A stretch of DNA of 64,000 bases from Patescibacteria group bacterium (GTDB lineage: Bacteria > Patescibacteriota > Minisyncoccia > UBA6257 > Colwellbacteraceae), in NCBI GenBank assembly GCA_023380305.1, contig JAMCQZ010000008.1:122659-186658 (forward strand), in the 5' to 3' direction. The notes beneath the pieces are model-generated. The model did not search any database. It saw only the letters and a list, made by a program, of their open reading frames with translations, and was not told where the DNA came from. Position 1 is the stretch's first letter, and every line of letters starts with the position of its first letter. Shown piece by piece: positions 577 to 61,680 of the stretch. The position numbers and the translations under genes were made by a program.

Positions 577-783
577 ATGAGTATCCGCACTCTGACCTGC
601 AGGGATATATGCGATGGACGGAACAGCCTGGTTGATGGCCCGCCCATCACATTGAGACAAGTCGAGGAGATGATGGCGCCAGCCGTCGATCCCCGAGCTC
701 CGGAAAATTCTCCGGAGTACCGACAACTCACCCGGATCATTAACAAAAGAAAAATTCGGGCGCGCAATCCCCGAACTTTGTAG
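577..783 (+). CDS. hypothetical small protein (68 aa)
   Basis: AAGGAGG lies 8 nt before ATG 577. A TTGCCA-17nt-TATCTA promoter-like motif sits at ~528-556. A GC hairpin plus U-tract follows the stop. No family recognised; the antisense ORFs 474..788 and 490..726 were rejected. Confidence 0.45.
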   Translation: MSIRTLTCRDICDGRNSLVDGPPITLRQVEEMMAPAVDPRAPENSPEYRQLTRIINKRKIRARNPRTL

Positions 784-786
784 CCC

Positions 787-822
787 AAGGCTGCCGTAAG
801 GCAGCCTTCTCCATTTCTATTT
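787..822 (+). terminator. rho-independent terminator (AAGGCTGCC-GTAA-GGCAGCCTT followed by a T-rich run)
   Basis: Perfect 9-bp stem followed by CTCCATTTCTATTTTCC. Confidence 0.5.
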
Positions 823-1977
823 TCCTTTTTTTAAAATTTCGTAAATCCTTTTCGCGATCAACTTCATATCTTTCTCTTTCATTCCACGACGAGTAATGGC
901 CGGCGTGCCTATGCGGATGCCCGAAGGTTTGAAAGGAGAGGTGTCTCCAGGAACGCTGTTCCTATTCGCGATAATGCCATTTTTCTCGAGCAATTTCTCG
1001 GCGGTCAAACCGTCTACGCCGAAATTTTTCAAATCCAGAAGCATCAGATGGTTATCGGTTCCGCCGCTTACTAAAACAAACCCGAGTTTTTTAAACTCCT
1101 CGGCCAGAACCCTGGCGTTTTTGACAATCTGCTCCTCGTATTTTTTGAATCCCGGCTGTTGCGCCTCATAAAACATCTGGCATTTGGCGGCAGTAACATT
1201 GTTGTGCGGTCCGCCCTGTAATCCGGGGAAAACCGCCTTGTCGATTTCCTCGACCAGCTCTCGACGGCAGAAAATAACCGCGCCCCGTGGTCCGGCCAAG
1301 GTCTTGTGAGTGGTCGTCGTTACCACGTCGCTCCATGGAAAAGGCGACGGATGAAGCCCGGCGGCAACCAATCCGGCGATGTGGGAAATATCGGCCATAT
1401 GATAAGCGCCGACGGATTTAGCGATTTCGCTAATGCGTTTGAAATTGATCTTGCGAGGATAGGCGGAAATACCGGAGACGATGATCTTCGGTTTATGCTT
1501 TCGGGCCAGTCTGGCTATTTCTCCATAATCGATCAAGCCGGTTTTTTCATCGACTCCGTACTGAACCGCGCGGAAAAACTTCCCGGAAAAAGAGACTTTG
1601 TGGCCGTGGGTAAGATGGCCGCCGGCGGCGAGCTTCATCCCCAGGATCGTTTCCCCCGGCTCCAAAAGCGCCCCGTAGACCGCGAAATTGGCCGGAGAAC
1701 CGGAATACGGCTGGACATTGGCGTGCCATTTAGAAGGGCTAATATGAAAAGCCTTCAGGGCGTTTTCCTCGCAAAGCAACTCGATTTCATCGTAATACTT
1801 GTTCCCGGGATAATAGCGCTTGCCCGGATAACCTTCGGAATATTTGTTAACCAGGACCGATCCCAGAAGCTCCCTCACCTCATCCGAAGCGTAGTTTTCG
1901 GAAGCGATGAGGTCGACATCGCGAGTCTGCCTCCGCTCTTCTTTTTTAACCAGATCCCAAAGCCTCTTGTACTTCAT
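817..1977 (-). CDS. glyA: serine hydroxymethyltransferase
   Basis: ORF 817..2118 trimmed to Met48 (MKYKRLWDLVKKEERRQ...), which aligns with the SHMT N-terminus. It carries the motifs LIASENY, NKYSEGYPGKRYY, VQPYSGSPANFAVY and the THKTL PLP-lysine region. Confidence 0.9.
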   Translation of the reverse strand: MKYKRLWDLVKKEERRQTRDVDLIASENYASDEVRELLGSVLVNKYSEGYPGKRYYPGNKYYDEIELLCEENALKAFHISPSKWHANVQPYSGSPANFAVYGALLEPGETILGMKLAAGGHLTHGHKVSFSGKFFRAVQYGVDEKTGLIDYGEIARLARKHKPKIIVSGISAYPRKINFKRISEIAKSVGAYHMADISHIAGLVAAGLHPSPFPWSDVVTTTTHKTLAGPRGAVIFCRRELVEEIDKAVFPGLQGGPHNNVTAAKCQMFYEAQQPGFKKYEEQIVKNARVLAEEFKKLGFVLVSGGTDNHLMLLDLKNFGVDGLTAEKLLEKNGIIANRNSVPGDTSPFKPSGIRIGTPAITRRGMKEKDMKLIAKRIYEILKKGK

Positions 1978-2077
1978 ATATAGAAAAGGATAACAACAAT
2001 TTGACGAATAGACAAAGCTGTCGTAGAATCCGGCTGCTGGATGGCGCCCCGCGCCGTCCGCGGAAGGAGGGTAAAAA

Positions 2078-5293: not shown

Positions 5294-5379
5294 GATAAAC
5301 TTTGAAGAGACCGCGGCCGATAAGAGACAATCGTGCCGCGAGAGGGAAGCTTACTACTCGTCATCGCCATCGCCTATCA

Positions 5380-5514
5380 CATTATATAATTTTGTAGGCG
5401 ATTGTCGGACTCCGTTCTTAAACCCCTCGGTTTGAGACCCGCCGGCAGGCGGATCCGCTACGGAAAGTAAACTTCCCGGCCCCTTCTTTTTTCGATATTC
5501 TTACTCGCGTCATA
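5380..5514 (-). repeat. tRNA-associated conserved element, copy E (downstream of tRNA-Phe)
   Basis: The minus-strand read GAAGGGGCCGGGAAGTTTACTTTCC...CCTGCCGGCGGG...AAACCGAGGGGTTTAAGAACGGAG is homologous to the cores after tRNA-Arg(TCT), tRNA-Arg(CCG) and tRNA-Gly. A degenerate copy of the tRNA-Phe 3' end (CTTCCCTCTCGCGGCAC) lies further downstream at ~5320-5345. Confidence 0.45.
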
Positions 5515-5778: not shown

Positions 5779-5850
5779 GCCCTCGTAGTTCAATGGACAG
5801 AACCGGAGACTTCTAATCTCTTAATGGGGGTCCGATTCCTCCCGAGGGCA
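5779..5850 (+). tRNA. tRNA-Arg (anticodon TCT)
   Basis: GCCCTCGTAGTTCAATGGACAGAACCGGAGACTTCTAATCTCTTAATGGGGGTCCGATTCCTCCCGAGGGCA, with anticodon loop CTTCTAA. Confidence 0.8.
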
Positions 5851-5853
5851 CAT

Positions 5854-5878
5854 AAATCCGCCGATGAGGCGGATTTTT
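5854..5878 (+). terminator. rho-independent terminator after tRNA-Arg(TCT)
   Basis: AAATCCGCC-GATGA-GGCGGATTTTT. Confidence 0.6.
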
Positions 5879-6078
5879 GGACCACTGGGAGGTCAATCGG
5901 ATTGGAAAAGGGGTCGGGGAAACTACCGTTTCCCCGTGGAGGAAACCTGCCGACAGGCAGGGCTAAAACCGCAGGGTGTTAGAGAAGCCCCTTCCTATTC
6001 TATTGACAATCGTTAGGGGCGAGGGAGATTCCGTGTTTCCCGAGGGCACATAAATCCGCCGACGAGGCGGATTTTTAT
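5879..6078 (+). repeat. tRNA-associated conserved element, copy A, ending in a degenerate tRNA-Arg(TCT) 3' end plus a duplicated terminator
   Basis: The core GGAAAAGGGGTCGGGGAAACTACCGTTTCCCCGTGGAGGAAAC...AAAACCGCAGGGTGTTAGAGAAG is homologous to copies B, C and E. At 6037-6078, TCCCGAGGGCACATAAATCCGCCGACGAGGCGGATTTTT nearly duplicates the tRNA 3' end plus terminator found at 5840-5878. Confidence 0.5.
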
Positions 6079-6857: not shown

Positions 6858-6887
6858 AAAATATCCCCTAAAGGGGATATTTTATTT
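6858..6887 (+). terminator. rho-independent terminator after tRNA-Gly
   Basis: ATATCCCC-TAAA-GGGGATAT followed by TTTATTT. Confidence 0.55.
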
Positions 6888-6904
6888 ATACGTGATATCC
6901 GGAT

Positions 6905-6992
6905 GAGTATAGGAAAGGGTCTCCGGCAGTTGCCGGACAAACCGAGTGGTTTGAGCGAGGAGTTGTGCGACGACGTTCGATCCCTATCCTGC
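6905..6992 (+). repeat. tRNA-associated conserved element, copy C, ending in a degenerate tRNA-Gly 3' end
   Basis: AGGAAAGGGTCTCCGGCAGTTGCCGGACAAACCGAGTGGTTTGAGCGAGGAG aligns with copy B (AAGGAAGGTGTCAGGGAACTCGTTCCCT...GAAACCGAGAGGTGTCAGAGAGGAG). GCGACGACGTTCGATCCCTATCCTGC then mimics the tRNA-Gly 3' end GGTTCGATTCCGGTATCCCGC. Confidence 0.4.
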
Positions 6993-7094
6993 TTTATTTT
7001 ACAAAGCCCTTTCCAGCCTATAAACTGAAATAGCCTTTGGGAGTTTAGGTAAGTGGTATACCGGCGGTCTCCAATTCCGCAGACAATCAAAAAT

Positions 7095-7167
7095 GGGGCT
7101 ATAGTTCAGTGGTAGAATGTCGATCTCCAAAATCGATGACCGAGGTTCGAATCCTCGTGGCCCCGCC
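7095..7167 (+). tRNA. tRNA-Trp (anticodon CCA)
   Basis: GGGGCTATAGTTCAGTGGTAGAATGTCGATCTCCAAAATCGATGACCGAGGTTCGAATCCTCGTGGCCCCGCC, with anticodon loop CTCCAAA and discriminator G. Confidence 0.85.
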
Positions 7168-7186
7168 GACTAAGATATATGCGGGA

Positions 7187-7222
7187 CGATTCCTCCAACT
7201 CCCGCCTCAAAAAACGCCCCTT
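7187..7222 (+). repeat. 36-bp direct repeat, left copy (CGATTCCTCCAACTCCCGCCTCAAAAAACGCCCCTT), tRNA 3'-end-like
   Basis: Identical at 35 of 36 positions to 8336-8371. It is preceded by GCGGGA (a tRNA-Gly-like acceptor 5' strand). The two copies bracket the low-GC methyltransferase gene. Confidence 0.6.
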
Positions 7223-7223
7223 A

Positions 7224-8234
7224 TTACTTTTCCGCCATCAGACCTATGGTAGTTTGCTTGTCGGCGAGTTTGATCCGCGGAGGATTGAAGTTGAATCCGG
7301 CATATGGTTTTAGATAAGCGCCGTCAATGATTTTCGCCCGATGAAAATGACAAGGCCTCGCTAAAGATGTCAAAGATTGACGAGTATATTTAACTGTCTC
7401 CGGATCGCCGAGAAAACGATCACATCCATCCTTGCCTTGAGTGACAATCAACAGCTTCCCTCCTGGTTTTAAAACTCTCCACATTTCTTTAAGGGCCAAT
7501 TTCGCTCCTTGATAATCCATGTGCTCTAAAACGAAATAACAAAGAATCCCTCCGAATTTATTGTTCGGAAAATTAAGATGGCGAGCGTCGCCATAACGCA
7601 AATCCAGTCCTAAAGACTTAGCCATGGCGTTTTTTATCTTATCCAATTCATAATCAACGCCAATAATTCTTTTAGGATCCAAACTCACGAATTCGCCTAA
7701 CCCCGCACCGACATCAAGAATCTTCCCCGATAAATCTTTAAAGAATAAATCCCAAAGAAATTGTTGATGATGTATGCTCTGATCCCAAAAAGCCTTCACG
7801 CATTCGACATCGTCAAGATCTCTTATAAAAAGCTCATTTGCCATGAAGGGTCGCAGTTCGACATCGCCAAATTTGGCGGTATAGGCCTTCGGCACCCCCG
7901 GACATAATTCTCGAAGCAGGCAATTCGAACATTTTTCGACTAGGGTATCTCCAGGAGAATGTTTTACTAAAGACACGAATCCCGTCCATGCGCGACCTTC
8001 TCTGGGAAAAACGCACAAAGGACAACCCGATATTGATATATTATAGAAATGCTTTTGATCAGAGATATTTTGGATAATCGGGATAACATCTTTATAAGTA
8101 ACCATCTCGGACTCGGAAGAATAATCATAAAAAAGATCGAAATCTTCATGATGAGCGATAAATTTGCTTAATAAATCCTTAAGCCCGCCTAAAGATTTTT
8201 TATTAAGGCCGATACGATGCGGGTGTCCGTTCAT
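7224..8234 (-). CDS. class I SAM-dependent methyltransferase with an N-terminal Cys-rich (zinc-ribbon-like) domain
   Basis: Motif I ILDVGAGLGEF and post-I/II VLKPGGKLLIV. The N-terminal region has CPLC...CSNC. The gene is about 40% GC against about 52% around it. Confidence 0.8.
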   Translation of the reverse strand: MNGHPHRIGLNKKSLGGLKDLLSKFIAHHEDFDLFYDYSSESEMVTYKDVIPIIQNISDQKHFYNISISGCPLCVFPREGRAWTGFVSLVKHSPGDTLVEKCSNCLLRELCPGVPKAYTAKFGDVELRPFMANELFIRDLDDVECVKAFWDQSIHHQQFLWDLFFKDLSGKILDVGAGLGEFVSLDPKRIIGVDYELDKIKNAMAKSLGLDLRYGDARHLNFPNNKFGGILCYFVLEHMDYQGAKLALKEMWRVLKPGGKLLIVTQGKDGCDRFLGDPETVKYTRQSLTSLARPCHFHRAKIIDGAYLKPYAGFNFNPPRIKLADKQTTIGLMAEK

Positions 8235-8335
8235 AAATTAGTAGCTCTACAGCTTTCAACACTACCCATAACCTTACGCTTCTATTTCAGCATAACAAAG
8301 ATTAAAACAAGGTTCAAAATATAGAAACTCGGGTT

Positions 8336-8371
8336 CGATTCCTCCGACTCCCGCCTCAAAAAACGCCCCTT
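8336..8371 (+). repeat. 36-bp direct repeat, right copy (CGATTCCTCCGACTCCCGCCTCAAAAAACGCCCCTT)
   Basis: It is preceded by a T-loop-like CTCGGGTTCGATTCC. The copy plus its upstream context resembles the tRNA-Trp 3' end (CGAGGTTCGAATCCTCGTGGCCCCGCC). Its 3' part forms a perfect terminator hairpin. Confidence 0.6.
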
Positions 8372-8388
8372 GCGGGGCGTTTTAAACG
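8358..8388. terminator. bidirectional hairpin terminator (AAAACGCCCC-TTGC-GGGGCGTTTT)
   Basis: Perfect 10-bp stem flanked by an A-tract and a T-tract, sitting at the tyrS stop. Confidence 0.55.
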
Positions 8389-9578
8389 ACGATCTTCTTA
8401 AATTTTCTCTTCCCGATCTGGAGAATCAAGCCTTCCGCCGGGATATCGATTTCTTCGACCGGATTATCGTGTTTTTTCTCGTTTATATCGACTCCGCCCT
8501 GTTCCACCAGCCGCCTGGCTTCGCTCCGGCTTTTGGCCATATTGGCGGCGACAACGAGATCAATGATATTCATTCTGGAAGAAACGGCCCTAAAGACTTC
8601 GATGTTTTCGGGAGCTTCTTTTTCCCGGAAAACCCTGTTAAATCCGTCCTCGGCCGCTTTGGCGGCTCCGAGACCGTGATACAAAGCAGTGATTTCGAAA
8701 GCCAGTCTCGCCTTGGCGTCCCGAGGATTTTGCGAATCCATGATCTTTTTTATTTCCTCTTCTTTGAGATCGGTGCAAAGCCAGAAATATTTATAAATCA
8801 GCTCGTCATTTAGACTCATCATCTTGCCGTACATATCGCCTGGCTCGTCGGAAATATTGATGACGTTTCCCCAGCTCGTCGACATCTTCCGGCCATCGGT
8901 GCCTTCGAGCATTTCGTTTATCAAAATATCCTGTTCCTTCTGACGATAATATTTTTGAATCGTCCGGCCGGCCATCAAATTAAAAAGCTGGTCTGTCCCG
9001 CCGAGCTCGACGTCGGCCTTAATGGCGACGCTGTCATATCCCTGCATCAGCGGATATAAAAATTCACGAAGGCTTATTTCCTCATGACGCTCGAAACGGT
9101 CCTTAAAATTCCGACGTTCGAGCATCTGGAGGACGGAGAAGCTTTCCGCCAGATTGGCGATTTCTTTAAAATTTAGTTTTCTCAACCAATCGTTGTTGTT
9201 TCTAAACTCCACTTTCCGGAGATCCAGAATTTTGCCGAGCTGACGCTTGTAGTCGGCCATGTTCTTTCTAACCTGGGCTTCGGTGAGCATTGGACGCTTG
9301 GAAAGCTTGTCCGACGGGTCGCCGATCTGGGCCGTAAAGCCGCCGATAACGAGTACCACCTTGTGCCCAAGGTCTTGGAACTCCTTAAGCTTCCTGATGG
9401 CCACCGCCCGACCAAGATGAATCTTCGTCCCGGTCGGATCAATGCCGAGCTTCACGCGCAAACGCTTTCCGGACCTCAAGGCCTCTTCCAAATGCCCGCG
9501 ATCGATAACTTCGGCCACGCCCCGGGAAAGCAAAGCGTTGATCTTTTCCTCCTTATTTGTTTTTCTTGATGATTTCAT
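8382..9578 (-). CDS. tyrS: tyrosine--tRNA ligase (bacterial type with C-terminal S4 domain)
   Basis: HIGH-region variant [15 protein letters not shown] for KMSKS, and a C-terminal S4-like [20 protein letters not shown]. The annotated ATG overlaps the clpP 3' end by 26 nt, so a downstream non-canonical start is possible. Confidence 0.85.
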
Positions 9579-15688: not shown

Positions 15689-15823
15689 AAATTCTTTGTT
15701 TGGATAATTAAGATTAGCCCGAAATCCGTTTTTTTTCAAGGGGAACGATTTTTCCGAAGCGTCAAGGCGTTTTCGACCGGAAGCCGTTTCAATATTTTGC
15801 GACAAGCATGATAAAATTGATCG

Positions 15824-16711
15824 ATGATCGAAAAATACCTGAAAGACTACCTGGATTACCTGCAGATCGAGAAGAACCGCTCCTACCGGACCAAAGACGT
15901 TTACGGCCGGGCCCTCAAAAAATTCTTCGAGTTCGCCAAAATCAAGAAACCCGAAGACATCACAAACGACAAAATCCGTTCTTTCCGCATCCACCTCGCG
16001 GAAAGCACGAGGTTGAAAAAGAATACCCAAAGCTATTACGTCATCGCCATACGGAACTTCCTCCGTTATCTCATTAAAAGGGATATCGAGGTGATTTCCC
16101 CGGACAAAATCGAATTGCCGCAGATTCCCAAAAGACAGATCGACATCATCGAATACGAAGACCTGGAGCGGCTTTTAAGGGCGCCCGAAGGGTCGAGCCT
16201 CAAGGATCTCCGCGATCGGGCCATTCTCGAACTCCTCTTCTCAACCGGGCTTCGGGTGTCCGAACTCTGCGGACTCGACCGTTATTTAAACTGGAACCGC
16301 GGAGAGATTACCGTCCGCGGCAAAGGCGAAAAACTGCGGGTGGTCTTTATTTCGGACGCTGCCAGAAAAGCCATCAAAAACTACCTTGATAAACGTGGAG
16401 ATCCCGACTCAGCGCTCTTTGTCAGCTACTCGAATAACAAGAACCCGAAAGCCCTCGGCCGGATCACGCCGCGGAGCATCCAAAGACTCGTGGATTTTTA
16501 CAGTCGCAAAGCCGGCATCGCCAAAAGAATTTCGCCCCACACCCTGCGCCACCTTTTCGCGACCGATCTATTGATGAACGGAGCGGATTTGAGATCGGTC
16601 CAGGAGATGCTCGGCCACGCGAGCATCCAGACAACCCAGATCTATACCCACCTCACCAACAAGGCCCTAAAAGAAGTACACGAGGCTTTTCACGGAAGAC
16701 GAAGGAAATAA
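15824..16711 (+). CDS. tyrosine site-specific recombinase, XerC/XerD family
   Basis: N-terminal SAM-like core-binding domain. C-terminal catalytic R..HxxR..Y: [39 protein letters not shown]. Confidence 0.85.
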
Positions 16712-37424: not shown

Positions 37425-39875
37425 ATGAAAAAAGATAACGTCTATAGAGACATTTTTATTTCGGTCGTCGCTCTCGGAATTTTCGCCGCGCTCGCCGGCC
37501 TCTTGGTCTTCTACCGCTTGAGCAAGACTCTTCCGCCAGTCGCTCAGCTCGATGGCGACATCAAGACCGAGTCAACCAAAATCTACGACCGCACCGGGCA
37601 GGTGATGCTCTACGAAATCTACGGTGAGGAGCGCCGCACTATTCTCTCGGCAGATCAAATCCCTGATGTTATGAGGCGAGCGGTGATCGCCGTCGAAGAT
37701 AAGGAATTCTACGGCCATCCGGCCTTCGATATCGCGGCCATGACTAGGGCCCTTATCGCCGACATTTTGAAACAAAGCGCTTCCCAGGGCGGCTCAACCA
37801 TCACTCAGCAGCTCGCCCGGAACGCCTTTTTAACGACCGAACGCTCGATAACGAGAAAGCTCAAGGAGATCATCCTCGCCTATCGCATCGAAAAACTTTA
37901 TTCCAAGGACGAAATCCTGAATCTCTATTTAAACCAGATTCCCTTCGGCCAGAACAGCTACGGCATTGAGGCTGCGAGCCAGACCTATTTCGCCAAACAC
38001 GCCTCCGATCTTAGTCTGTCCGAAGCGGCCCTGCTCGCGGCCGTGGCCAAAGGGCCAAGTTACTTTTCTCCCTGGGGGTCCCACCTCATCGAGCTCGAAG
38101 GCCGCAGGCAATACGTGCTCGAACAGATGGAAAAAGTCGGGTTCATCGACAAGCAGCAGTTGGAAGCCGCGAGAGCGGACAAGCCACGAGTCCTTGCCGA
38201 ACCCCAAAGGGCCAACTTTCATATCGCGCCCCACTTCGTCATTTACGTCCAGGATTATTTAAACCAGAAATACGGGGAGGACTTCGTGAGGAGATCGGGA
38301 ATGAAGGTGATCACCACCTTGGATGTCGACCTCCAGAAACTAGCGAATGAGAAAGTGGCCTCCGGCGGAAAAAGGAATATTGAGATGATCAACGGCCACA
38401 ACGTCGCCCTACTTGCCGAAGACGCGACCAACGGCCAGATACTCGCCATGGTCGGGTCAAGGGATTATTTCGCCGATTCCGAACCAGCCGGTTGCGTTGA
38501 AGGGGAAAACTGCCTCTTCGAGGGAAAATTCAACGTCGCCACTCAGGGATTGAGACAGCCCGGATCCGCTCTAAAACCCTTTGTCTATTCGTTAGCATTC
38601 AAATCAGGCCTGACTCCCGACACCGTCGTTTTCGATGTCCCGACGGAGTTCCGCGCCAACAGCTCTGATTGCCCGGCTGTCCCGAACCTCATCGATGAAA
38701 ACAAAGAATGCTATCATCCGAAAAATTACGACGGTCTTTTCAGGGGGCCGATCATGTTGAAAGACGCCCTGGCGCGGTCTTTAAACATTCCGGCGGTTAA
38801 AGTGCTCCATGTCGTTGGGCTCCAAAATGCCATCAACTGGCTGGAAAGATTCGGCATCACTACCTTGAATGATCCCGACCGCATCGGGCTTTCTCTCACC
38901 CTGGGAGGAGGGGAAATCAGACTGACCGAACTCACGAATGCCTACGCTACCCTGGCAAACGACGGTGTTTTCAATCCTCAAACCGCGATCTTGAGCATCG
39001 CCGATTCCAAGGGGAACGTTTTGGAACAATTCGAACCGAAACCAGAAAGAGCCGTCGACGCCCAATATGCGAGGCTCGTAAACGACATCCTCTCCGATCC
39101 AAAGCTCAGGGAGCCGCTCTTCGGATCAAACCTTTACCTAACCCAGGTCCCGGGCAAACAGATCGCCCTTAAGACAGGAACCGCCGACAACTACGTCGAC
39201 GCTTGGGCCTTCGGCTATTCGCCGCGGCTCGTGGTCGGTCTCTGGGCCGGCAACAACAACCGCCACCCCTTGGGAAAAGCCGGATCAAGTATTCTGGCCG
39301 CAATTCCAACCTGGCACGACTTCGCTATCGAAGCCTTTAAAAACGAACCCGGCCTTACCTTTATCAAGCCAGATCCCATCTATTCCGATTCGCCGATACT
39401 TTTGGGAGCGATCGACCGAAGCAACGTTCACGACCTCCTTTATTTCTTAAACCGGATTTCCGATCCGCAATACCAGAATTGGGAAGAAGACGTCAGAGCC
39501 TGGGTGACCCAAAACGGCATGCCTCTTTATTGGGGCCAGGCCACTTATACCTTTAAAAGCGACGGCCGAGTGGAATTAAACGGTGAAAAAAATATCACCA
39601 TAAGCCTGTCTTTCCCGAAAAACGGCGACTTTATTAATTCCTCGTCCGAATTGAAAGCGTCTGTCTCGGCCGAATCCGGCGTAAAAAGCATCGAACTCCT
39701 ATTAAACAGTCAGCCGATAGACGTTTTCCAGGCCGGTTCAAAAAACATCGTCGATTATCGCTTTGTTTTCGGGACGACTCCATTAAACCCCCAGAATTCG
39801 TTAACCTTACGGGCGACAAATGCTTTAGGGAACTCCACCGAACAAACAATAATCGTCTTTAAGGAGACCGATTAA
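37425..39875 (+). CDS. class A penicillin-binding protein (glycosyltransferase plus transpeptidase) with C-terminal extension
   Basis: GT51 motifs RAVIAVEDKEFYGHP and GGSTITQQLAR. Transpeptidase SALKPF (SxxK) and KTGTA. Confidence 0.85.
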   Translation: MKKDNVYRDIFISVVALGIFAALAGLLVFYRLSKTLPPVAQLDGDIKTESTKIYDRTGQVMLYEIYGEERRTILSADQIPDVMRRAVIAVEDKEFYGHPAFDIAAMTRALIADILKQSASQGGSTITQQLARNAFLTTERSITRKLKEIILAYRIEKLYSKDEILNLYLNQIPFGQNSYGIEAASQTYFAKHASDLSLSEAALLAAVAKGPSYFSPWGSHLIELEGRRQYVLEQMEKVGFIDKQQLEAARADKPRVLAEPQRANFHIAPHFVIYVQDYLNQKYGEDFVRRSGMKVITTLDVDLQKLANEKVASGGKRNIEMINGHNVALLAEDATNGQILAMVGSRDYFADSEPAGCVEGENCLFEGKFNVATQGLRQPGSALKPFVYSLAFKSGLTPDTVVFDVPTEFRANSSDCPAVPNLIDENKECYHPKNYDGLFRGPIMLKDALARSLNIPAVKVLHVVGLQNAINWLERFGITTLNDPDRIGLSLTLGGGEIRLTELTNAYATLANDGVFNPQTAILSIADSKGNVLEQFEPKPERAVDAQYARLVNDILSDPKLREPLFGSNLYLTQVPGKQIALKTGTADNYVDAWAFGYSPRLVVGLWAGNNNRHPLGKAGSSILAAIPTWHDFAIEAFKNEPGLTFIKPDPIYSDSPILLGAIDRSNVHDLLYFLNRISDPQYQNWEEDVRAWVTQNGMPLYWGQATYTFKSDGRVELNGEKNITISLSFPKNGDFINSSSELKASVSAESGVKSIELLLNSQPIDVFQAGSKNIVDYRFVFGTTPLNPQNSLTLRATNALGNSTEQTIIVFKETD

Positions 39876-40981
39876 TCTTTGATCGGCATTAAAATATAGA
39901 AATAAGAAGTGTCGTTCGGCGCTTTGATGATCGCTGGCCGGCTGTCTCCCTGGAGGCCGAATAAAACCGTATCCGTGTAAATGTTTTTCAATCCGTCCAG
40001 GAGATATTTCCAATTAAACGAAGCTTTGACTGGGTCGCCGTTTATTTTCGCGGAAATCAAATATTTGTTTTCCCCGAGTCCGCTGTCGGCCGAATAGACC
40101 TCGACGATCTTTTTGTCGTCTCCCACTTTAACGATCACTTCGCCACTTCTCGCGGTAAACGACCCGGCTAATTTCATAGCGTTCACCAACTCCTGTTTAT
40201 CGATGACTATTTCGGTTTCGAGAATCTTCGGAATGATCGGCCCGTAATCCGGAAACTGCCCGTCGATCAGCCGGGTGATTATCTCCAGGCTTTCTGTCTT
40301 GAAAAGCGCCTGGGAGTCGTCGATAAAAATATGGACATCATCCTCGTCATCCAAAACCCTCACCAACTCCTGGATGGTTTTTAAGGGAATAATGGTTTTT
40401 TTAACCTTTAAGGAATTGCTTTTAAATTGCGTTTCCGGGATAGTTTTTTCTGCTAGCCTAAAACTGTCGGTCGCCACCAATTTGAAAACATTGGTTTCGA
40501 AATTAAAAAGAATGCCGCTTATTTCCGGACGCAAATCGGAAATTTGACAAGCGTTGATTATTTTATTGATTCCTTCCTTTAAGACCGCAGCGGGGATATT
40601 AAAACTTCCTGATTCCGGAGTGATTTTGGGGATAATCGGAAAATCCGAAGGATTCATCCCTTGGATAGTCGCTTCGTAATTATCCGTTTTAAGAAAAAGG
40701 TTGTTCTTTTTCGCTTCAAGGTCAATGCGCTCGCTTTGAAGATTGTTGATCAGACTATTTAAGAGATTAAAAGGGACCGTTACTTCTCCTTGCTCGGTGA
40801 TTTTTCCAGGAACGATTTTTGTGATAGCCGCTTCAAGATTAGTGGAAGCGATGGTGATTTTCGACTGATCCGCTCTAATAAAGATATTTTTTAAGATCGG
40901 CAGATTGAGATTATCTTCGATCGTTCTTGAGACGGCATCCAAGGCATTTTTTAGATTATTACGTAATACGATTATTTTCAT
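39872..40981 (-). CDS. dnaN: DNA polymerase III beta sliding clamp
   Basis: Three-domain beta-clamp layout (MKIIVLRNNLKNALDAVSRTIE...), positioned immediately downstream of dnaA. Confidence 0.85.
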   Translation of the reverse strand: MKIIVLRNNLKNALDAVSRTIEDNLNLPILKNIFIRADQSKITIASTNLEAAITKIVPGKITEQGEVTVPFNLLNSLINNLQSERIDLEAKKNNLFLKTDNYEATIQGMNPSDFPIIPKITPESGSFNIPAAVLKEGINKIINACQISDLRPEISGILFNFETNVFKLVATDSFRLAEKTIPETQFKSNSLKVKKTIIPLKTIQELVRVLDDEDDVHIFIDDSQALFKTESLEIITRLIDGQFPDYGPIIPKILETEIVIDKQELVNAMKLAGSFTARSGEVIVKVGDDKKIVEVYSADSGLGENKYLISAKINGDPVKASFNWKYLLDGLKNIYTDTVLFGLQGDSRPAIIKAPNDTSYFYILMPIKD

Positions 40982-41130
40982 ATATAAATTTGTAGTAGTT
41001 ATCCGTGTGGATTGGTGGATAAGTTGTTTTTCGACGCTTTTTAAATAAGTTTTTTGATATTTATTTTTGTGGATAAAAAGTTTTTATCTGCGTTCGTCTG
41101 TTTTTATCCATAATTTATTCCCGGAATAAT
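40982..41130. promoter_or_regulatory. putative oriC segment: DnaA-box cluster in AT-rich dnaA-dnaN intergenic region
   Basis: A perfect box TGTGGATAA at ~41068-41076, GTGGATAAG at ~41015-41023 and TTATCCATA at ~41104-41112, plus weaker boxes near 40999-41013 and T/A-rich spacers. Confidence 0.6.
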
Positions 41131-42489
41131 TCACAGGTTTTGGGGTTTATTGATTAAATCCTTGATTAGAGAAATTTTTTGATTCAACCCTTGGTCTTTG
41201 GAAAGAGAAAGGTTGATTTTTTCATAGGCGTAGATGGCTGTCGTGTGATCGCGCTTCCCCATTTTTTCGGCAATATAGGGATAAGACATATTGAGAAGTT
41301 CCCGCAGAAGATAAATAGCCACTTGTCTCGGCTCGACGATCTCTTTTTTCCGGCCCCGACCGATCAGGTCGGTTGGGGAGATTTCGTAGAAGGTGGAGAC
41401 GGCTTTAAGCACGTGTGTTGGGCTAATATTGACCGCAGACTGGGTTAAAATATCATTGATGATATTTTCCACTTGTTCGATAGAAAAACCCTCCTGGTGC
41501 TGATTTCTGTAGAAAATAAGCTTGTTTAAAATACCTTCGAGCTCCCGGATATTCCTTTGGATTTTTTTGGCGACGATGCTGATAACGGCGTCGTCGAAAG
41601 CCTCGCTTTTCTCTTGAAGCTTCACTTTAATAATGGCCATCCTTGTTTCGTAGTCCGGGAAGCTGATATCGGCGATCATTCCACCTTCAAACCTCGAACG
41701 AAGCCTTTCTTCGAGTATCGGAATGGCGCGCGGAGGCCGATCCGAAGAAATGATGATCTGTTTATTGGCCTCGTAAAGGGCGTTGAAGGTGTGGAAGAAT
41801 TCTTCTTCAGTTTTCTCCTTTCCGCCGATGAACTGGATATCGTCAATTATTAAGACGTCGACGTTCCGATAGGCTTCTTTGATATCCTCGACGCGTTTGT
41901 TTCTTATCGCCCAGATAACGTCGTTCGTGAACTTTTCCGAGGAGACATATTTGACGTTGACGTTTTTATAGTTGTTTTTTATTTCGTTTCCGATAGCTTG
42001 GATCAAGTGGGTTTTACCGAGGCCGGTGCCGCCGTAAACAAAGAGAGGATTGTATTTTTTGCCGATCTCTTCGATGACAGCGAGCGAAGCGGCGTAAGCC
42101 AGTTCGTTCGAGGAACCGACGACAAACGATTTCAAATTGTATCTTGGATTGAGTCCGGTCTCGGGATCGATCTTAAGTTCGGAGAAAACCAATTGCTTGC
42201 TTTGAGGAGCGGCCGGAGCCTGTTCGGCGGGCTTCTTGAAAACTACGCTATCGACGGCATAACTAATATTTCTGATCGATCCGTCCTTGCTTCTTAAGAC
42301 GCCGAGGATTAATTTATGGTATTTTGTTTCCACCCATTCTTTGGCGAAGTGGTTTGGGAGGATAACAGTCGCCTTTCCGTTTTCGTAATCGTTCATGCGG
42401 CTGTTTTTTAACCAAGTAAGGAAGTTGGGCTTTGAAATTTGTATTTCCAGTTCTGACAAAACGTTTTTCCAAAGCTCTTCCTTATTCAT
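41131..42489 (-). CDS. dnaA: chromosomal replication initiator DnaA
   Basis: AAA+ Walker A GGTGLGKTHLIQAIGNE, box VII, and a C-terminal DNA-binding domain. Confidence 0.9.
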   Translation of the reverse strand: MNKEELWKNVLSELEIQISKPNFLTWLKNSRMNDYENGKATVILPNHFAKEWVETKYHKLILGVLRSKDGSIRNISYAVDSVVFKKPAEQAPAAPQSKQLVFSELKIDPETGLNPRYNLKSFVVGSSNELAYAASLAVIEEIGKKYNPLFVYGGTGLGKTHLIQAIGNEIKNNYKNVNVKYVSSEKFTNDVIWAIRNKRVEDIKEAYRNVDVLIIDDIQFIGGKEKTEEEFFHTFNALYEANKQIIISSDRPPRAIPILEERLRSRFEGGMIADISFPDYETRMAIIKVKLQEKSEAFDDAVISIVAKKIQRNIRELEGILNKLIFYRNQHQEGFSIEQVENIINDILTQSAVNISPTHVLKAVSTFYEISPTDLIGRGRKKEIVEPRQVAIYLLRELLNMSYPYIAEKMGKRDHTTAIYAYEKINLSLSKDQGLNQKISLIKDLINKPQNL

Positions 42490-42556
42490 GGCTTAATTTT
42501 AGGTAAGCGGAGCTTGATAGTCAAAAGAAGCAAAAAAACATAAACTGTTGACTACC

Positions 42557-42565
42557 TGTGGATAA
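42557..42565. promoter_or_regulatory. perfect DnaA box (TGTGGATAA) in dnaA-rpmH intergenic region
   Basis: Exact reverse complement of TTATCCACA, about 20 nt upstream of rpmH. Confidence 0.5.
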
Positions 42566-42583
42566 TTCGATTATTTTTAATAT

Positions 42584-42718
42584 ATGTCATTAACTTATCA
42601 GCCGAGAAAGAAAAAGAGAAGCCGAACGCACGGCTTTCTTAAGCGTCAGAGCACCCCAGGCGGCAGACGGACGGTTGCGAGGCGTCGCGCCAAAGGAAGG
42701 AAGAGGCTGACGGTTTAA
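42584..42718 (+). CDS. rpmH: 50S ribosomal protein L34
   Basis: Not in the ORF track (44 aa). [44 protein letters not shown] aligns with L34. Its stop overlaps the rnpA ATG (TAATG). Confidence 0.85.
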
Positions 42719-43050
42719 TGCTTTCCAAAAGACATCGCTTTAACGTCCTGTCAAACAGGGGTTTTTTGGCTTTCTACCGAGGCGGACAGATCTTGATTAA
42801 AGTCAGGCTAAACCATTTGACATTTTCGAGATTTGGTGTCTTTCTGACGAAGAAAAACATTCCCTTATCCAGTCAAAGAATCGCCTTTAAAAGATTGGTG
42901 TTTGATTTTCTTGACAAAAGCGGGGTTTTATCGTCTTCTCCCTCGGCCGAACCCAGGGATTTTCTGATAATTAACCTCGCCAAAATAAACAAAATAGGGG
43001 ATAATAAACCGATTATTATTAAAGAACTCAAAGAAGCTTTTCATGTTTAA
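42718..43050 (+). CDS. rnpA: ribonuclease P protein component
   Basis: Basic 110-aa protein (KRHRF...IAFKRLVFDFL) in the conserved rpmH-rnpA-yidC-jag position. Confidence 0.7.
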   Translation: MLSKRHRFNVLSNRGFLAFYRGGQILIKVRLNHLTFSRFGVFLTKKNIPLSSQRIAFKRLVFDFLDKSGVLSSSPSAEPRDFLIINLAKINKIGDNKPIIIKELKEAFHV

Positions 43051-43765
43051 CTTATTGCTTTACAGACCGTTTTTAAATCTTCTCGTTTGGATCTCCGAGC
43101 ATTTGGTCGCGGGCGATTTTGGTCTGGCTATCGTGATTTTGACCGTCGTCGTGAGGTTCTTGCTCTTCCCGTTCTTCCATAAGTTTCTAAAAGGACAGCA
43201 GGCGATGATAAAGGTCCAGGCCGAGCAGAAGAAGATCGAAGCGCAGTATCCCGGGAATAAAGAAAAACAGCTTCAAGCCATCATGGAGCTCTATAAGGCG
43301 AATAAAATCAACCCTTTTGCCAGCCTCCTCCTCACTTTCGTCCAAATACCGGTTATCTATGCCCTTTATAAAGTGATTATCACCGGCTTGAATGGCGGAG
43401 CCATTGGGAATCTTTACCCTTTTATTAAGCCGACGACGACGGTCAATTATTTGTTTCTAGGCTTGATAAATCTCAAAGAAAGCAATACGATAATGCTTGG
43501 TTTGGCGCTCGGAGTCCAGCTAATCCAGGGCGTAATGGCTGCCCCCGGAGGCTTGTTCGGAAAGACAACCCCGGAGCTTAAAAAAAGCCGGCAGACGGCG
43601 ATCAACACGAGTTTGATGATGACCGGACTTCTTGCTTTGTTTTTCTGGAAACTGCCGGCGGCCATCGGGCTTTACTGGCTGGCATCGACCTTGTTTTCAA
43701 TCGGCCAGCAGTTAATCGTCAATAAAATAAGCGCGCAAAATGGAGAATTTAAAGGAAATAACTAA
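43043..43765 (+). CDS. yidC: membrane protein insertase YidC (short, monoderm-type)
   Basis: ILTVVVRFLLFPF, MIKVQAEQKKIEAQY, ELYKANKINP, and the typical five-TM core. Confidence 0.85.
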   Translation: MFNLLLYRPFLNLLVWISEHLVAGDFGLAIVILTVVVRFLLFPFFHKFLKGQQAMIKVQAEQKKIEAQYPGNKEKQLQAIMELYKANKINPFASLLLTFVQIPVIYALYKVIITGLNGGAIGNLYPFIKPTTTVNYLFLGLINLKESNTIMLGLALGVQLIQGVMAAPGGLFGKTTPELKKSRQTAINTSLMMTGLLALFFWKLPAAIGLYWLASTLFSIGQQLIVNKISAQNGEFKGNN

Positions 43766-61453: not shown

Positions 61454-61481
61454 AAAAATACTGCCTGTGGCAGTATTTTTG
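61454..61481 (+). terminator. rho-independent terminator after tRNA-Arg(CCG)
   Basis: AAAAATACTGCC-TGT-GGCAGTATTTTT. Confidence 0.6.
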
Positions 61482-61680
61482 TGCCCTGGAGAAGATTGAG
61501 AACAAGGAAGGTGTCAGGGAACTCGTTCCCTGCGGAGGAAGAACTGAAACCGAGAGGTGTCAGAGAGGAGCGGACGCGAAGTCCCGAGCTTATCGAGGGA
61601 CGGAGACGGTAGCGACGATGTTCGCTTCCCTCCCGAGGCACAACACAAAGCCGCCTTGAAGGCGGCTTTGTGTTACCCCT
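61482..61680 (+). repeat. tRNA-associated conserved element, copy B, ending in a degenerate tRNA-Arg(CCG) 3' end plus a second terminator
   Basis: The core AAGGAAGGTGTCAGGGAACTCGTTCCCTGCGGAGGAAGAAC...GAAACCGAGAGGTGTCAGAGAGGAG is followed by GCGACGATGTTCGCTTCCCTCCCGAGGCAC (compare the tRNA 3' end GCGATGAAGGTTCGATTCCCTCCCGAGGCACCA). The hairpin AAAGCCGCC-TTGAA-GGCGGCTTT follows. Confidence 0.5.

Follow-up and report, generated by a model that had tools for sequence, protein, structure and literature searches.

The question raised by this locus is how a single, compositionally atypical gene came to lie between a tryptophan tRNA (tRNA-Trp) gene and tyrS, bracketed by two copies of what looks like the end of a tRNA gene. 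The locus sits in a 64,000-nucleotide stretch of contig JAMCQZ010000008.1 (hereafter the window), which comes from a metagenome-assembled genome of Patescibacteria. We read a 1,149-bp unit, comprising one repeat, a methyltransferase gene and its upstream spacer, as an insertion into the 3' part of tRNA-Trp, with the two repeats as its attL- and attR-like junctions, and put the probability of this reading at roughly 0.6. An attL/attR integration scar around one foreign-looking gene was also the original prediction for this DNA; the tRNA-end repeats, the atypical composition and the empty sites in relatives described below uphold it, while no integrase was found and the idea of a simple recent arrival did not stand.

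The direct repeats at 7187–7222 and 8336–8371 (CGATTCCTCC(A/G)ACTCCCGCCTCAAAAAACGCCCCTT) are identical at 35 of 36 positions, as had been proposed, the sole difference being A at 7197 and G at 8346. Their start-to-start distance is 1,149 bp, and similarity reaches 5 nt further left with one indel (GCGGGA-CGATT at the left copy, CGGGTTCGATT at the right copy). No third copy with up to three mismatches was found in the window, where the chance expectation is 0, and the 17-nt terminator part of the repeat does not occur there beyond the two repeat copies. Within the window, the repeat is thus not a common terminator-associated sequence present dozens of times, which would have undermined the original prediction; with two copies in the window at three or fewer mismatches, it also does not qualify as a dispersed repeat of the terminator-associated or repetitive extragenic palindromic (REP) kind. 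A transposon does not fit either: the unit ends carry no inverted repeats, no transposase is present, and the duplication measures 36–41 bp.

The origin of the repeat was apparent from comparison with tRNA-Trp genes of relatives, which are designated here by L numbers. Positions 8331–8355 of the right copy (GGGTTCGATTCCTCCGACTCCCGCC) match the canonical Patescibacteria tRNA-Trp from T-stem to 3' end at 24 of 25 positions, in direct orientation. By canonical tRNA-Trp we mean the type of gene found in L001 (GGGAGTTTAGGTAAGTGGTATACCGGCGGTCTCCAAAACCGCGGTCGGGGGTTCGATTCCTCCAACTCCCGCC), which is also present in L057, L060, L125, L127, L138 and L139; a very similar gene occurs in the more distant Patescibacteria L035, L054 and L069. 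In contrast, the repeat matches the 3' end of the adjoining intact tRNA-Trp gene (7095–7167) at only ~18 of 24 positions (counted by eye), so that the proposed derivation from a tRNA 3' end holds for the canonical gene and not for the intact gene next door. A longer decayed tRNA extending 5' from the right copy was not found, local alignment there being no better than with shuffled sequences. Beyond the tRNA end, each repeat continues for 16 nt (TCAAAAAACGCCCCTT) that correspond to the first arm and half of the loop of an intrinsic terminator. The complete, bidirectional terminator (8360–8383, AAAACGCCCC-TTGC-GGGGCGTTTT) overlaps the tyrS stop codon, folds on the tyrS strand with −24.1 kcal/mol (z = −4.0), and forms a full hairpin only at the right copy; homologous hairpins occupy the equivalent position in L125 and L135. 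No hairpin forms at the left copy (−6 kcal/mol, z = 0.3). The attL-like left repeat (7187–7222, plus strand) therefore consists of the canonical tRNA-Trp from T-loop to 3' end (7187–7206) followed by the first half of the terminator only (7207–7222), and terminates 1 nt ahead of the methyltransferase stop codon. The attR-like displaced fragment on the right (8331–8371, plus strand) runs from the T-stem to the 3' end of tRNA-Trp and then into the first arm of the terminator. On these alignments, the repeat combines the canonical Patescibacteria tRNA-Trp, from its T-loop to its 3' end, with half of the terminator behind that gene.

The left repeat is itself the distal piece of an interrupted gene. 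Downstream of a promoter-like site identified by consensus scan (TTTACA-17-TAAACT, 6998–7026, plus strand), a block that is kept upstream of tRNA-Trp in L125, L003, L135, L001 and L057, lies a pseudogene fragment with positions 1–43 of the canonical tRNA-Trp(CCA) (7039–7080, plus strand; 40 of 42 positions identical to the intact genes of L001, L057 and L125). An insert splitting the canonical gene follows (7081–7186, plus strand), composed of a 14-nt spacer, an intact second tRNA-Trp(CCA) at 7095–7167, and a spacer ending in GCGGGA (7181–7186). The nested gene differs from the canonical one and was called by both ARAGORN and the Rfam tRNA model (70.7 bits); the split outer gene was called by neither. 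As judged from its sequence, the canonical tRNA-Trp is here a split pseudogene (7039–7080 plus 7187–7206) with a replacement tRNA-Trp nested inside it. The nested arrangement, which occupies 7039–7206 in the window, is shared with L003 (~1840–2045, reverse strand) and L135 (~7005–7215, reverse strand). GCGGGA is part of the conserved right junction of this nested insert (TATGCGGGA|CGATTCC), kept in the three genomes; because the junction is conserved together with the nested tRNA-Trp in L003 and L135, the earlier interpretation of GCGGGA as the 5' acceptor strand of a tRNA-Gly was rejected. In the predicted fold, UUCCGCA (7075–7081) pairs with UGCGGGA (7180–7186) and closes the insert. Since L003 and L135 carry a C where the window has the wobble U (UYCCGCA/UGCGGGA, 7 bp), the pairing is kept, though three sequences are too few to call selection on this helix. 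We also considered the outer tRNA-Trp as an intron-containing functional gene, which is unlikely: removal of the insert leaves the variable loop, the 5' strand of the T-stem and two T-loop bases missing. A functional outer gene is likewise undercut by an extra 36-nt hairpin-forming insertion (CCCGATACTGCATCGCAGATAACGGGGTAAATTCCA) in its D-loop in L003 and L135, absent in the window. Across the three nest-bearing genomes, the outer tRNA-Trp halves are more conserved than the spacers. A different arrangement is seen in L137 (4382–4507) and L136 (8610–8685), where a full-length variant tRNA-Trp is followed 16 nt on by a fragment of the canonical tRNA-Trp starting from the anticodon loop; this fragment is a second kind of integration scar at tRNA-Trp.

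We asked whether relatives retain the site without the unit, the comparison that the original prediction had called for. The native right-hand neighbour of tRNA-Trp is tyrS, encoding tyrosine-tRNA ligase (8382–9578, minus strand; Pfam tRNA-synt_1b, E = 1.3e-73), and nusA, clpP and tyrS are syntenic in every relative compared. In L125, whose tyrS product is 79% identical, the canonical tRNA-Trp, a homologous terminator and tyrS are contiguous, with no gene between them; in L135, the nested tRNA-Trp, the terminator and tyrS are likewise contiguous, again with no intervening gene. Joining the left repeat of the window to the sequence right of the right repeat yields an arrangement colinear with both, so that these uninterrupted loci equal the window minus one repeat and the cargo, the arrangement to which recombination between the two repeats would return the locus. 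This colinearity is the strongest evidence for reading the 1,149-bp unit, from sequence comparison, as an insertion that duplicated or brought with it 36–41 bp of its target. The repeat might instead have arisen during metagenome assembly, by the merging of gene-carrying and gene-free strains into a chimera. The window does stem from a metagenome-assembled genome, and filled and empty slots do coexist in at least one sample, L003 and L135 both deriving from Joint Genome Institute (JGI) sample 3300037067. We nevertheless consider such an artefact very improbable: the sequence to the left of the right copy (AAACTCGGGTT) is unique to it, as is the base at 8346; assembly k-mers and sequencing reads are typically longer than 36 bp; and a switch during assembly would not be predicted to join the spacer upstream of the methyltransferase gene to a T-loop as a new junction.

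The composition of the gene between the repeats was compared with that of its surroundings. The only open reading frame (ORF) between them (7224–8234, minus strand) encodes a 336-aa class I S-adenosylmethionine (SAM)-dependent methyltransferase. Its GC content is 41.5%, against 50.5% for the window and 49–51% for the neighbouring genes, which agrees with the clearly lower GC noted at the outset. The GC content at third codon positions (GC3) is 0.39, compared to 0.616 ± 0.054, the lowest among the 38 ORFs of at least 200 aa in the window, and its synonymous codon divergence is the highest among the 47 ORFs of at least 150 aa. The gene thus does not have native codon usage, and as the repeat is not a dispersed one either, neither finding that might have overturned the original observation was made, and the observation therefore stands. 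Upstream of the gene lies an AT-rich spacer (8235–8330, minus strand, 32% GC) with no similarity to tRNA-Trp. It contains a promoter (TTGAAC at 8317–8312, 17 nt, TATGCT at 8294–8289) that scored below the threshold of the consensus scan and is therefore only a candidate. Elsewhere in the window, dnaN, dnaA and yidC lie together in a stretch of below-average GC (39875–43762, 0.42–0.46), probably marking the origin of replication rather than foreign DNA.

The slot between tRNA-Trp and tyrS turns over among relatives. A methyltransferase gene occupies it in the same orientation in the window, L001/L060, L003 and L124; other contents are a MazG-like pyrophosphatase gene (L057), a 302–303-aa ORF of unknown family (L127), and a 296-aa ORF plus a 69-aa ORF (L136/L137), and the slot is empty in L125 and L135. 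L124 and L057 carry different cargo, yet their tyrS products are 94% identical over the 219 C-terminal columns they share.

These observations suggest the following course of events. The target would have been the T-loop-to-3'-end segment of the canonical tRNA-Trp, by then already a remnant because an earlier insertion with a replacement tRNA-Trp had split the gene. A circular intermediate of the form ...AAACTC-GGGTTCGATTCCTCC(A/G)ACTCCCGCC-TCAAAAAACGCCCCTT-(methyltransferase stop) would have recombined with this remnant, with the crossover at or just 3' of the T-loop. The left junction product would then join the chromosomal GCGGGA to the shared block and the cargo, and the right junction product would join the element's GGGTT to the shared block and the native terminator; the right repeat would be the displaced copy, still abutting that terminator and tyrS. 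The empty site is predicted to read TATGCGGGACGATTCCTCC[A/G]ACTCCCGCCTCAAAAAACGCCCCTTGCGGGGCGTTTT, and the circular junction AAACTCGGGTTCGATTCCTCC[A/G]ACTCCCGCCTCAAAAAACGCCCCTTATTACTTTTCC. The catalyst would probably have been a tyrosine integrase, acting in trans or since lost.

Several observations weigh against this reading. No integrase is encoded in or beside the unit, whose sole ORF is the methyltransferase gene. The only tyrosine recombinase found in the 64 kb, by a screen with motif regular expressions on ORFs of at least 150 aa that is therefore not exhaustive, is an Xer-type protein encoded 7.5 kb from the unit (15821–16708, plus strand); it scores below the equivalog cutoffs of the XerC/XerD models and above the cutoff of the archaeal-type XerA model. 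It is a possible trans-acting enzyme, and no evidence ties it to the tRNA insertions. Scans of viral and metagenome sequences for the attachment (att) core or the inner tRNA revealed no circular form, attP-bearing element or phage match: in metagenomes, the junction of tRNA end and terminator had no match and the nested-tRNA junction chance matches only, and neither the inner tRNA-Trp nor the canonical tRNA-Trp 3' end matched viral contigs. Neither the window nor the fetched loci contained a cognate integrative element whose integrase would serve this att site. A scan of a genome collection with the 17-mer CGATTCCTCCRACTCCC added five Patescibacteria tRNA-Trp loci, nearly all of its 120 loci being chance matches in coding DNA. 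In addition, the block of identity extends beyond the tRNA by 16 nt and takes in half of the host terminator; a foreign attP would not be expected to include such sequence unless the element had its origin at a locus of this kind. The T-loops of the two copies also differ (ACGATT left, TTCGATT right), which would hinder strand exchange inside the loop.

The same observations could be accounted for by homology-dependent entry, in which circular or looped DNA carrying the methyltransferase gene and ~40 bp of tRNA-Trp and terminator was integrated through one RecA-type crossover within the 25 bp of uninterrupted identity on the right-hand side of the A/G mismatch. No integrase is present, a host terminator inside the identity block is what is expected of homology copied from this locus, and the copies differ only where a crossover was unnecessary, namely in the T-loop and at 7197/8346. 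However, 25–36 bp is near the lower limit for efficient homologous recombination, and the displaced fragment begins, on its left side, within the T-loop, as at four other tRNA genes of the window (see below), pointing to a common site-specific process. We regard homology-dependent entry as unlikely, though worth keeping in view.

The remaining points of this kind concern the age of the gene. In L001/L060, L003 and L124, the methyltransferase gene lies 30–60 nt downstream of tyrS, without the terminator and without a right repeat. Pairwise divergence of the methyltransferases roughly scales with that of the tyrS products (68% versus 86% identity for L001 and L124; 58% versus 74% for the window and L001; 54% versus 68% for the window and L003; 53% versus 74% for the window and L124), as fits long residence, and therefore the insertion is not simply a recent arrival of alien DNA. 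This pattern fits a gene long resident in the clade, either inherited and repeatedly lost in a precise manner or passed between relatives. It could even be that the methyltransferase is an old vertical resident of the slot and that the repeat came later, by local duplication, by gene conversion or with a tRNA-3'-end, terminator and tyrS segment from a relative with an empty slot, so that the repeats would not mark the gene's arrival. The shared slot and orientation in the carriers, the similar ranking of methyltransferase and tyrS identities, and a GC3 that lies below that of the neighbouring genes in all four hosts by a similar margin and tracks each host's GC3 at a constant offset, all agree with such a history. 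It would, however, take at least two events to explain what a single integration can; gene conversion hardly extends identity into non-homologous flanks; and the gene, which is compositionally atypical in each host, is missing in L125, L135, L057 and L127, which are interleaved with the carriers by tyrS identity, so that several precise losses would be required. Old residence with a later repeat appears to us slightly less probable even than homology-dependent entry, and integration into the tRNA-Trp remnant remains the preferred explanation.

Displaced tRNA tails are not confined to tRNA-Trp. Four more tRNA genes of the window are directly followed by a small non-coding insert of 110–180 nt that ends in a displaced copy of the gene's own 3' part, starting in or at the T-loop: tRNA-Phe (insert at 5333–5514, minus strand), tRNA-Arg(TCT) (5879–6049, plus strand), tRNA-Gly (6885–6993, plus strand) and tRNA-Arg(CCG) (61479–61641, plus strand). 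The four inserts and their copies in relatives share a core in which AAGGAAGGGGUC precedes a first hairpin and GUGGAGGAA a second one (CUCAAACC-GNNN-GGUUUGAG); a purine-rich segment follows, and then GCGACGACG, directly adjoining the T-loop fragment, with one arm written GCGACGACG-TTCGATTCC. Of the 15 pairs predicted, 7 are maintained despite substitutions in both partners. Copies in relatives were located in L125 (7335–7470), L135 (9347–9476 and 9205–9318) and L139 (655–809), all on the minus strand. A covariance model of the core detected no further copies in the window, and none at the orthologous tRNA sites of L001, L057, L060 and L138, which are therefore empty sites. None of the non-coding inserts matched an Rfam family. 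In three or four of these cases, the terminator after the intact tRNA differs from that after the displaced fragment, which fits the classical model because an integrating element supplies a new tRNA 3' end along with its own terminator. The methyltransferase unit lacks the insert core and is therefore not the same element. Nevertheless, the unit and the four inserts have the T-loop-anchored displaced fragment in common, which speaks for a shared site-specific process rather than for coincidence or mere homology. A T-loop sublocation class of tRNA-gene integration was reportedly distinguished by Williams in 2002. It is conceivable, though we consider it doubtful, that the unit is one member of an active integrase-in-trans system of this lineage targeting the T-loops of many tRNA genes, the commonest members of which would be the 110–180-nt structured mini-elements; their circular forms would specify a small RNA with a tRNA 3' half and a terminator at its end, and the nested tRNA-Trp would be a functional product of that process and more than debris.

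The tRNA-Arg(TCT) insert has features of its own. It is bounded by a 39-nt repeat (5840–5878 and 6038–6076, 38 of 39 identical) that consists of the acceptor 3' strand of tRNA-Arg(TCT) and its whole terminator, whereas in the orthologous insertion of L135 the two terminators differ from each other. This difference suggests local homogenisation of the terminators in the window lineage, which lends some support to a late, local origin of the tRNA-Trp repeat beside an old resident gene. The T-loop of tRNA-Arg(TCT) reads TCCGATT, with C at the near-universal U55, in the window (5779–5851) and in L135 (9510–9582), both of which bear the insert, and TTCGATT in the insert-free L001 and L057; the TCCGATT loop may be a recombination footprint. 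In L139 (~655–870, reverse strand), a second copy of the 20-nt tRNA-Gly 3' end (GGTATCCCGCTCATAATAAA) lies ~190 nt downstream of the first, and the two bracket a copy of the small structured insert.

What kind of enzyme does the unit carry? The C-terminal half of the protein (~165–270) is a SAM-binding domain of the Methyltransf_11 type with a conserved DVGAGxG motif (Pfam Methyltransf_11, residues 173–263, E = 4.4e-15, 56.5 bits against a gathering cutoff of 21.2); Methyltransf_25, 23, 31, 12 and UbiE matched as well. Compared with the Methyltransf_11/UbiE-like group, with which it shares the motif and a C-terminal domain above the gathering score, the cargo protein adds an N-terminal domain of ~160 aa without any Pfam match or known family, in which four cysteines (C74, C102, C105 and C111; GxPLC...CxxCxxxxxC) are invariant among homologues. 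These results confirm the proposed class I SAM methyltransferase with an N-terminal cysteine-bearing domain. The suggested origin as a remnant of a restriction-modification or toxin system was not supported: no DNA methyltransferase family in Pfam or NCBIfam matched, there is no neighbouring gene within the unit and so no endonuclease there, and the single PADLOC hit, mad2, spans 112 residues of the generic SAM-binding fold only. With NCBIfam, only small-molecule methyltransferases were found, below their cutoffs, and no equivalog cutoff was reached; the relatives in the PDB are small-molecule, lipid or peptide methyltransferases. To the question whether it is specific for DNA, RNA or small molecules, profile searches thus return the small-molecule class and no DNA methylase, and by its family matches the cargo is a SAM methyltransferase of small-molecule type (or of unknown substrate), not a DNA methylase; we infer a metal-binding, small-molecule- or peptide-directed enzyme. 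Full-length homologues are rare, with only three among 5.8 billion proteins; the most distant (38% identity, L002) is encoded in a cluster with seven radical-SAM genes. An exact look-up of the window methyltransferase in a contig index gave no match, and an AlphaFold model built from a four-sequence alignment was too poor for use, with a mean predicted local distance difference test (pLDDT) score of 38. In L001, a C run at 7930–7960 breaks the reading frame at the methyltransferase start, so that the called protein has 293 aa, compared to 330 aa for a cluster member elsewhere; the run probably reflects an error in sequencing or assembly, or else a phase-variable tract.

How does the unit compare with known integrated elements? 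A tRNA gene (tDNA) together with a displaced fragment of it is an established mark of integrase-mediated insertion, and the Islander criteria comprise a tDNA fragment at the far end, regeneration of the intact tRNA, a tyrosine integrase and a length of at least 2 kb (PMC4383910). Like Islander-type islands, the unit has a displaced tRNA 3' fragment, from T-loop to 3' end, at its far end in direct orientation, atypical cargo, and an empty site in relatives (L125 and L135). Unlike them, it encodes no tyrosine integrase, is only 1.15 kb long, and continues its identity block into half of the host terminator. It also regenerates no intact tRNA, because the left target copy was a remnant of an already split gene, lacking the variable loop and the 5' strand of the T-stem. 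Cis-mobilizable elements (CIMEs) keep att sites and lack recombination genes, being without genes for integration and transfer (PMC6323972). The unit, with near-identical attL-/attR-like repeats as putative att sites and no integration or transfer genes, resembles the CIMEs of Firmicutes and is CIME-like in retaining att sites while recombination genes are absent; like them, it would depend on a helper to move, here as a remnant with a single cargo gene. It differs from them in that it resides in Patescibacteria, has a tRNA remnant as its target, and is of putative mobility. The unit is accordingly a minimal, integrase-less, CIME-like element of an already known kind.

The mobile DNA of Patescibacteria (candidate phyla radiation), whose genomes are small and streamlined, is poorly described. 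For annotation, the locus is a caution, as the repeat stems from a tRNA pseudogene that is split and escapes tRNA finders. It also supplies concrete junction sequences for population data, which makes excision and integration testable. Within this lineage, one slot beside tRNA-Trp exchanges single genes among close relatives, and tRNA genes gather several small insertions, each ending in a displaced tRNA tail. The nested tRNA-Trp and the family of structured mini-inserts are less ordinary than the methyltransferase unit and merit separate study.

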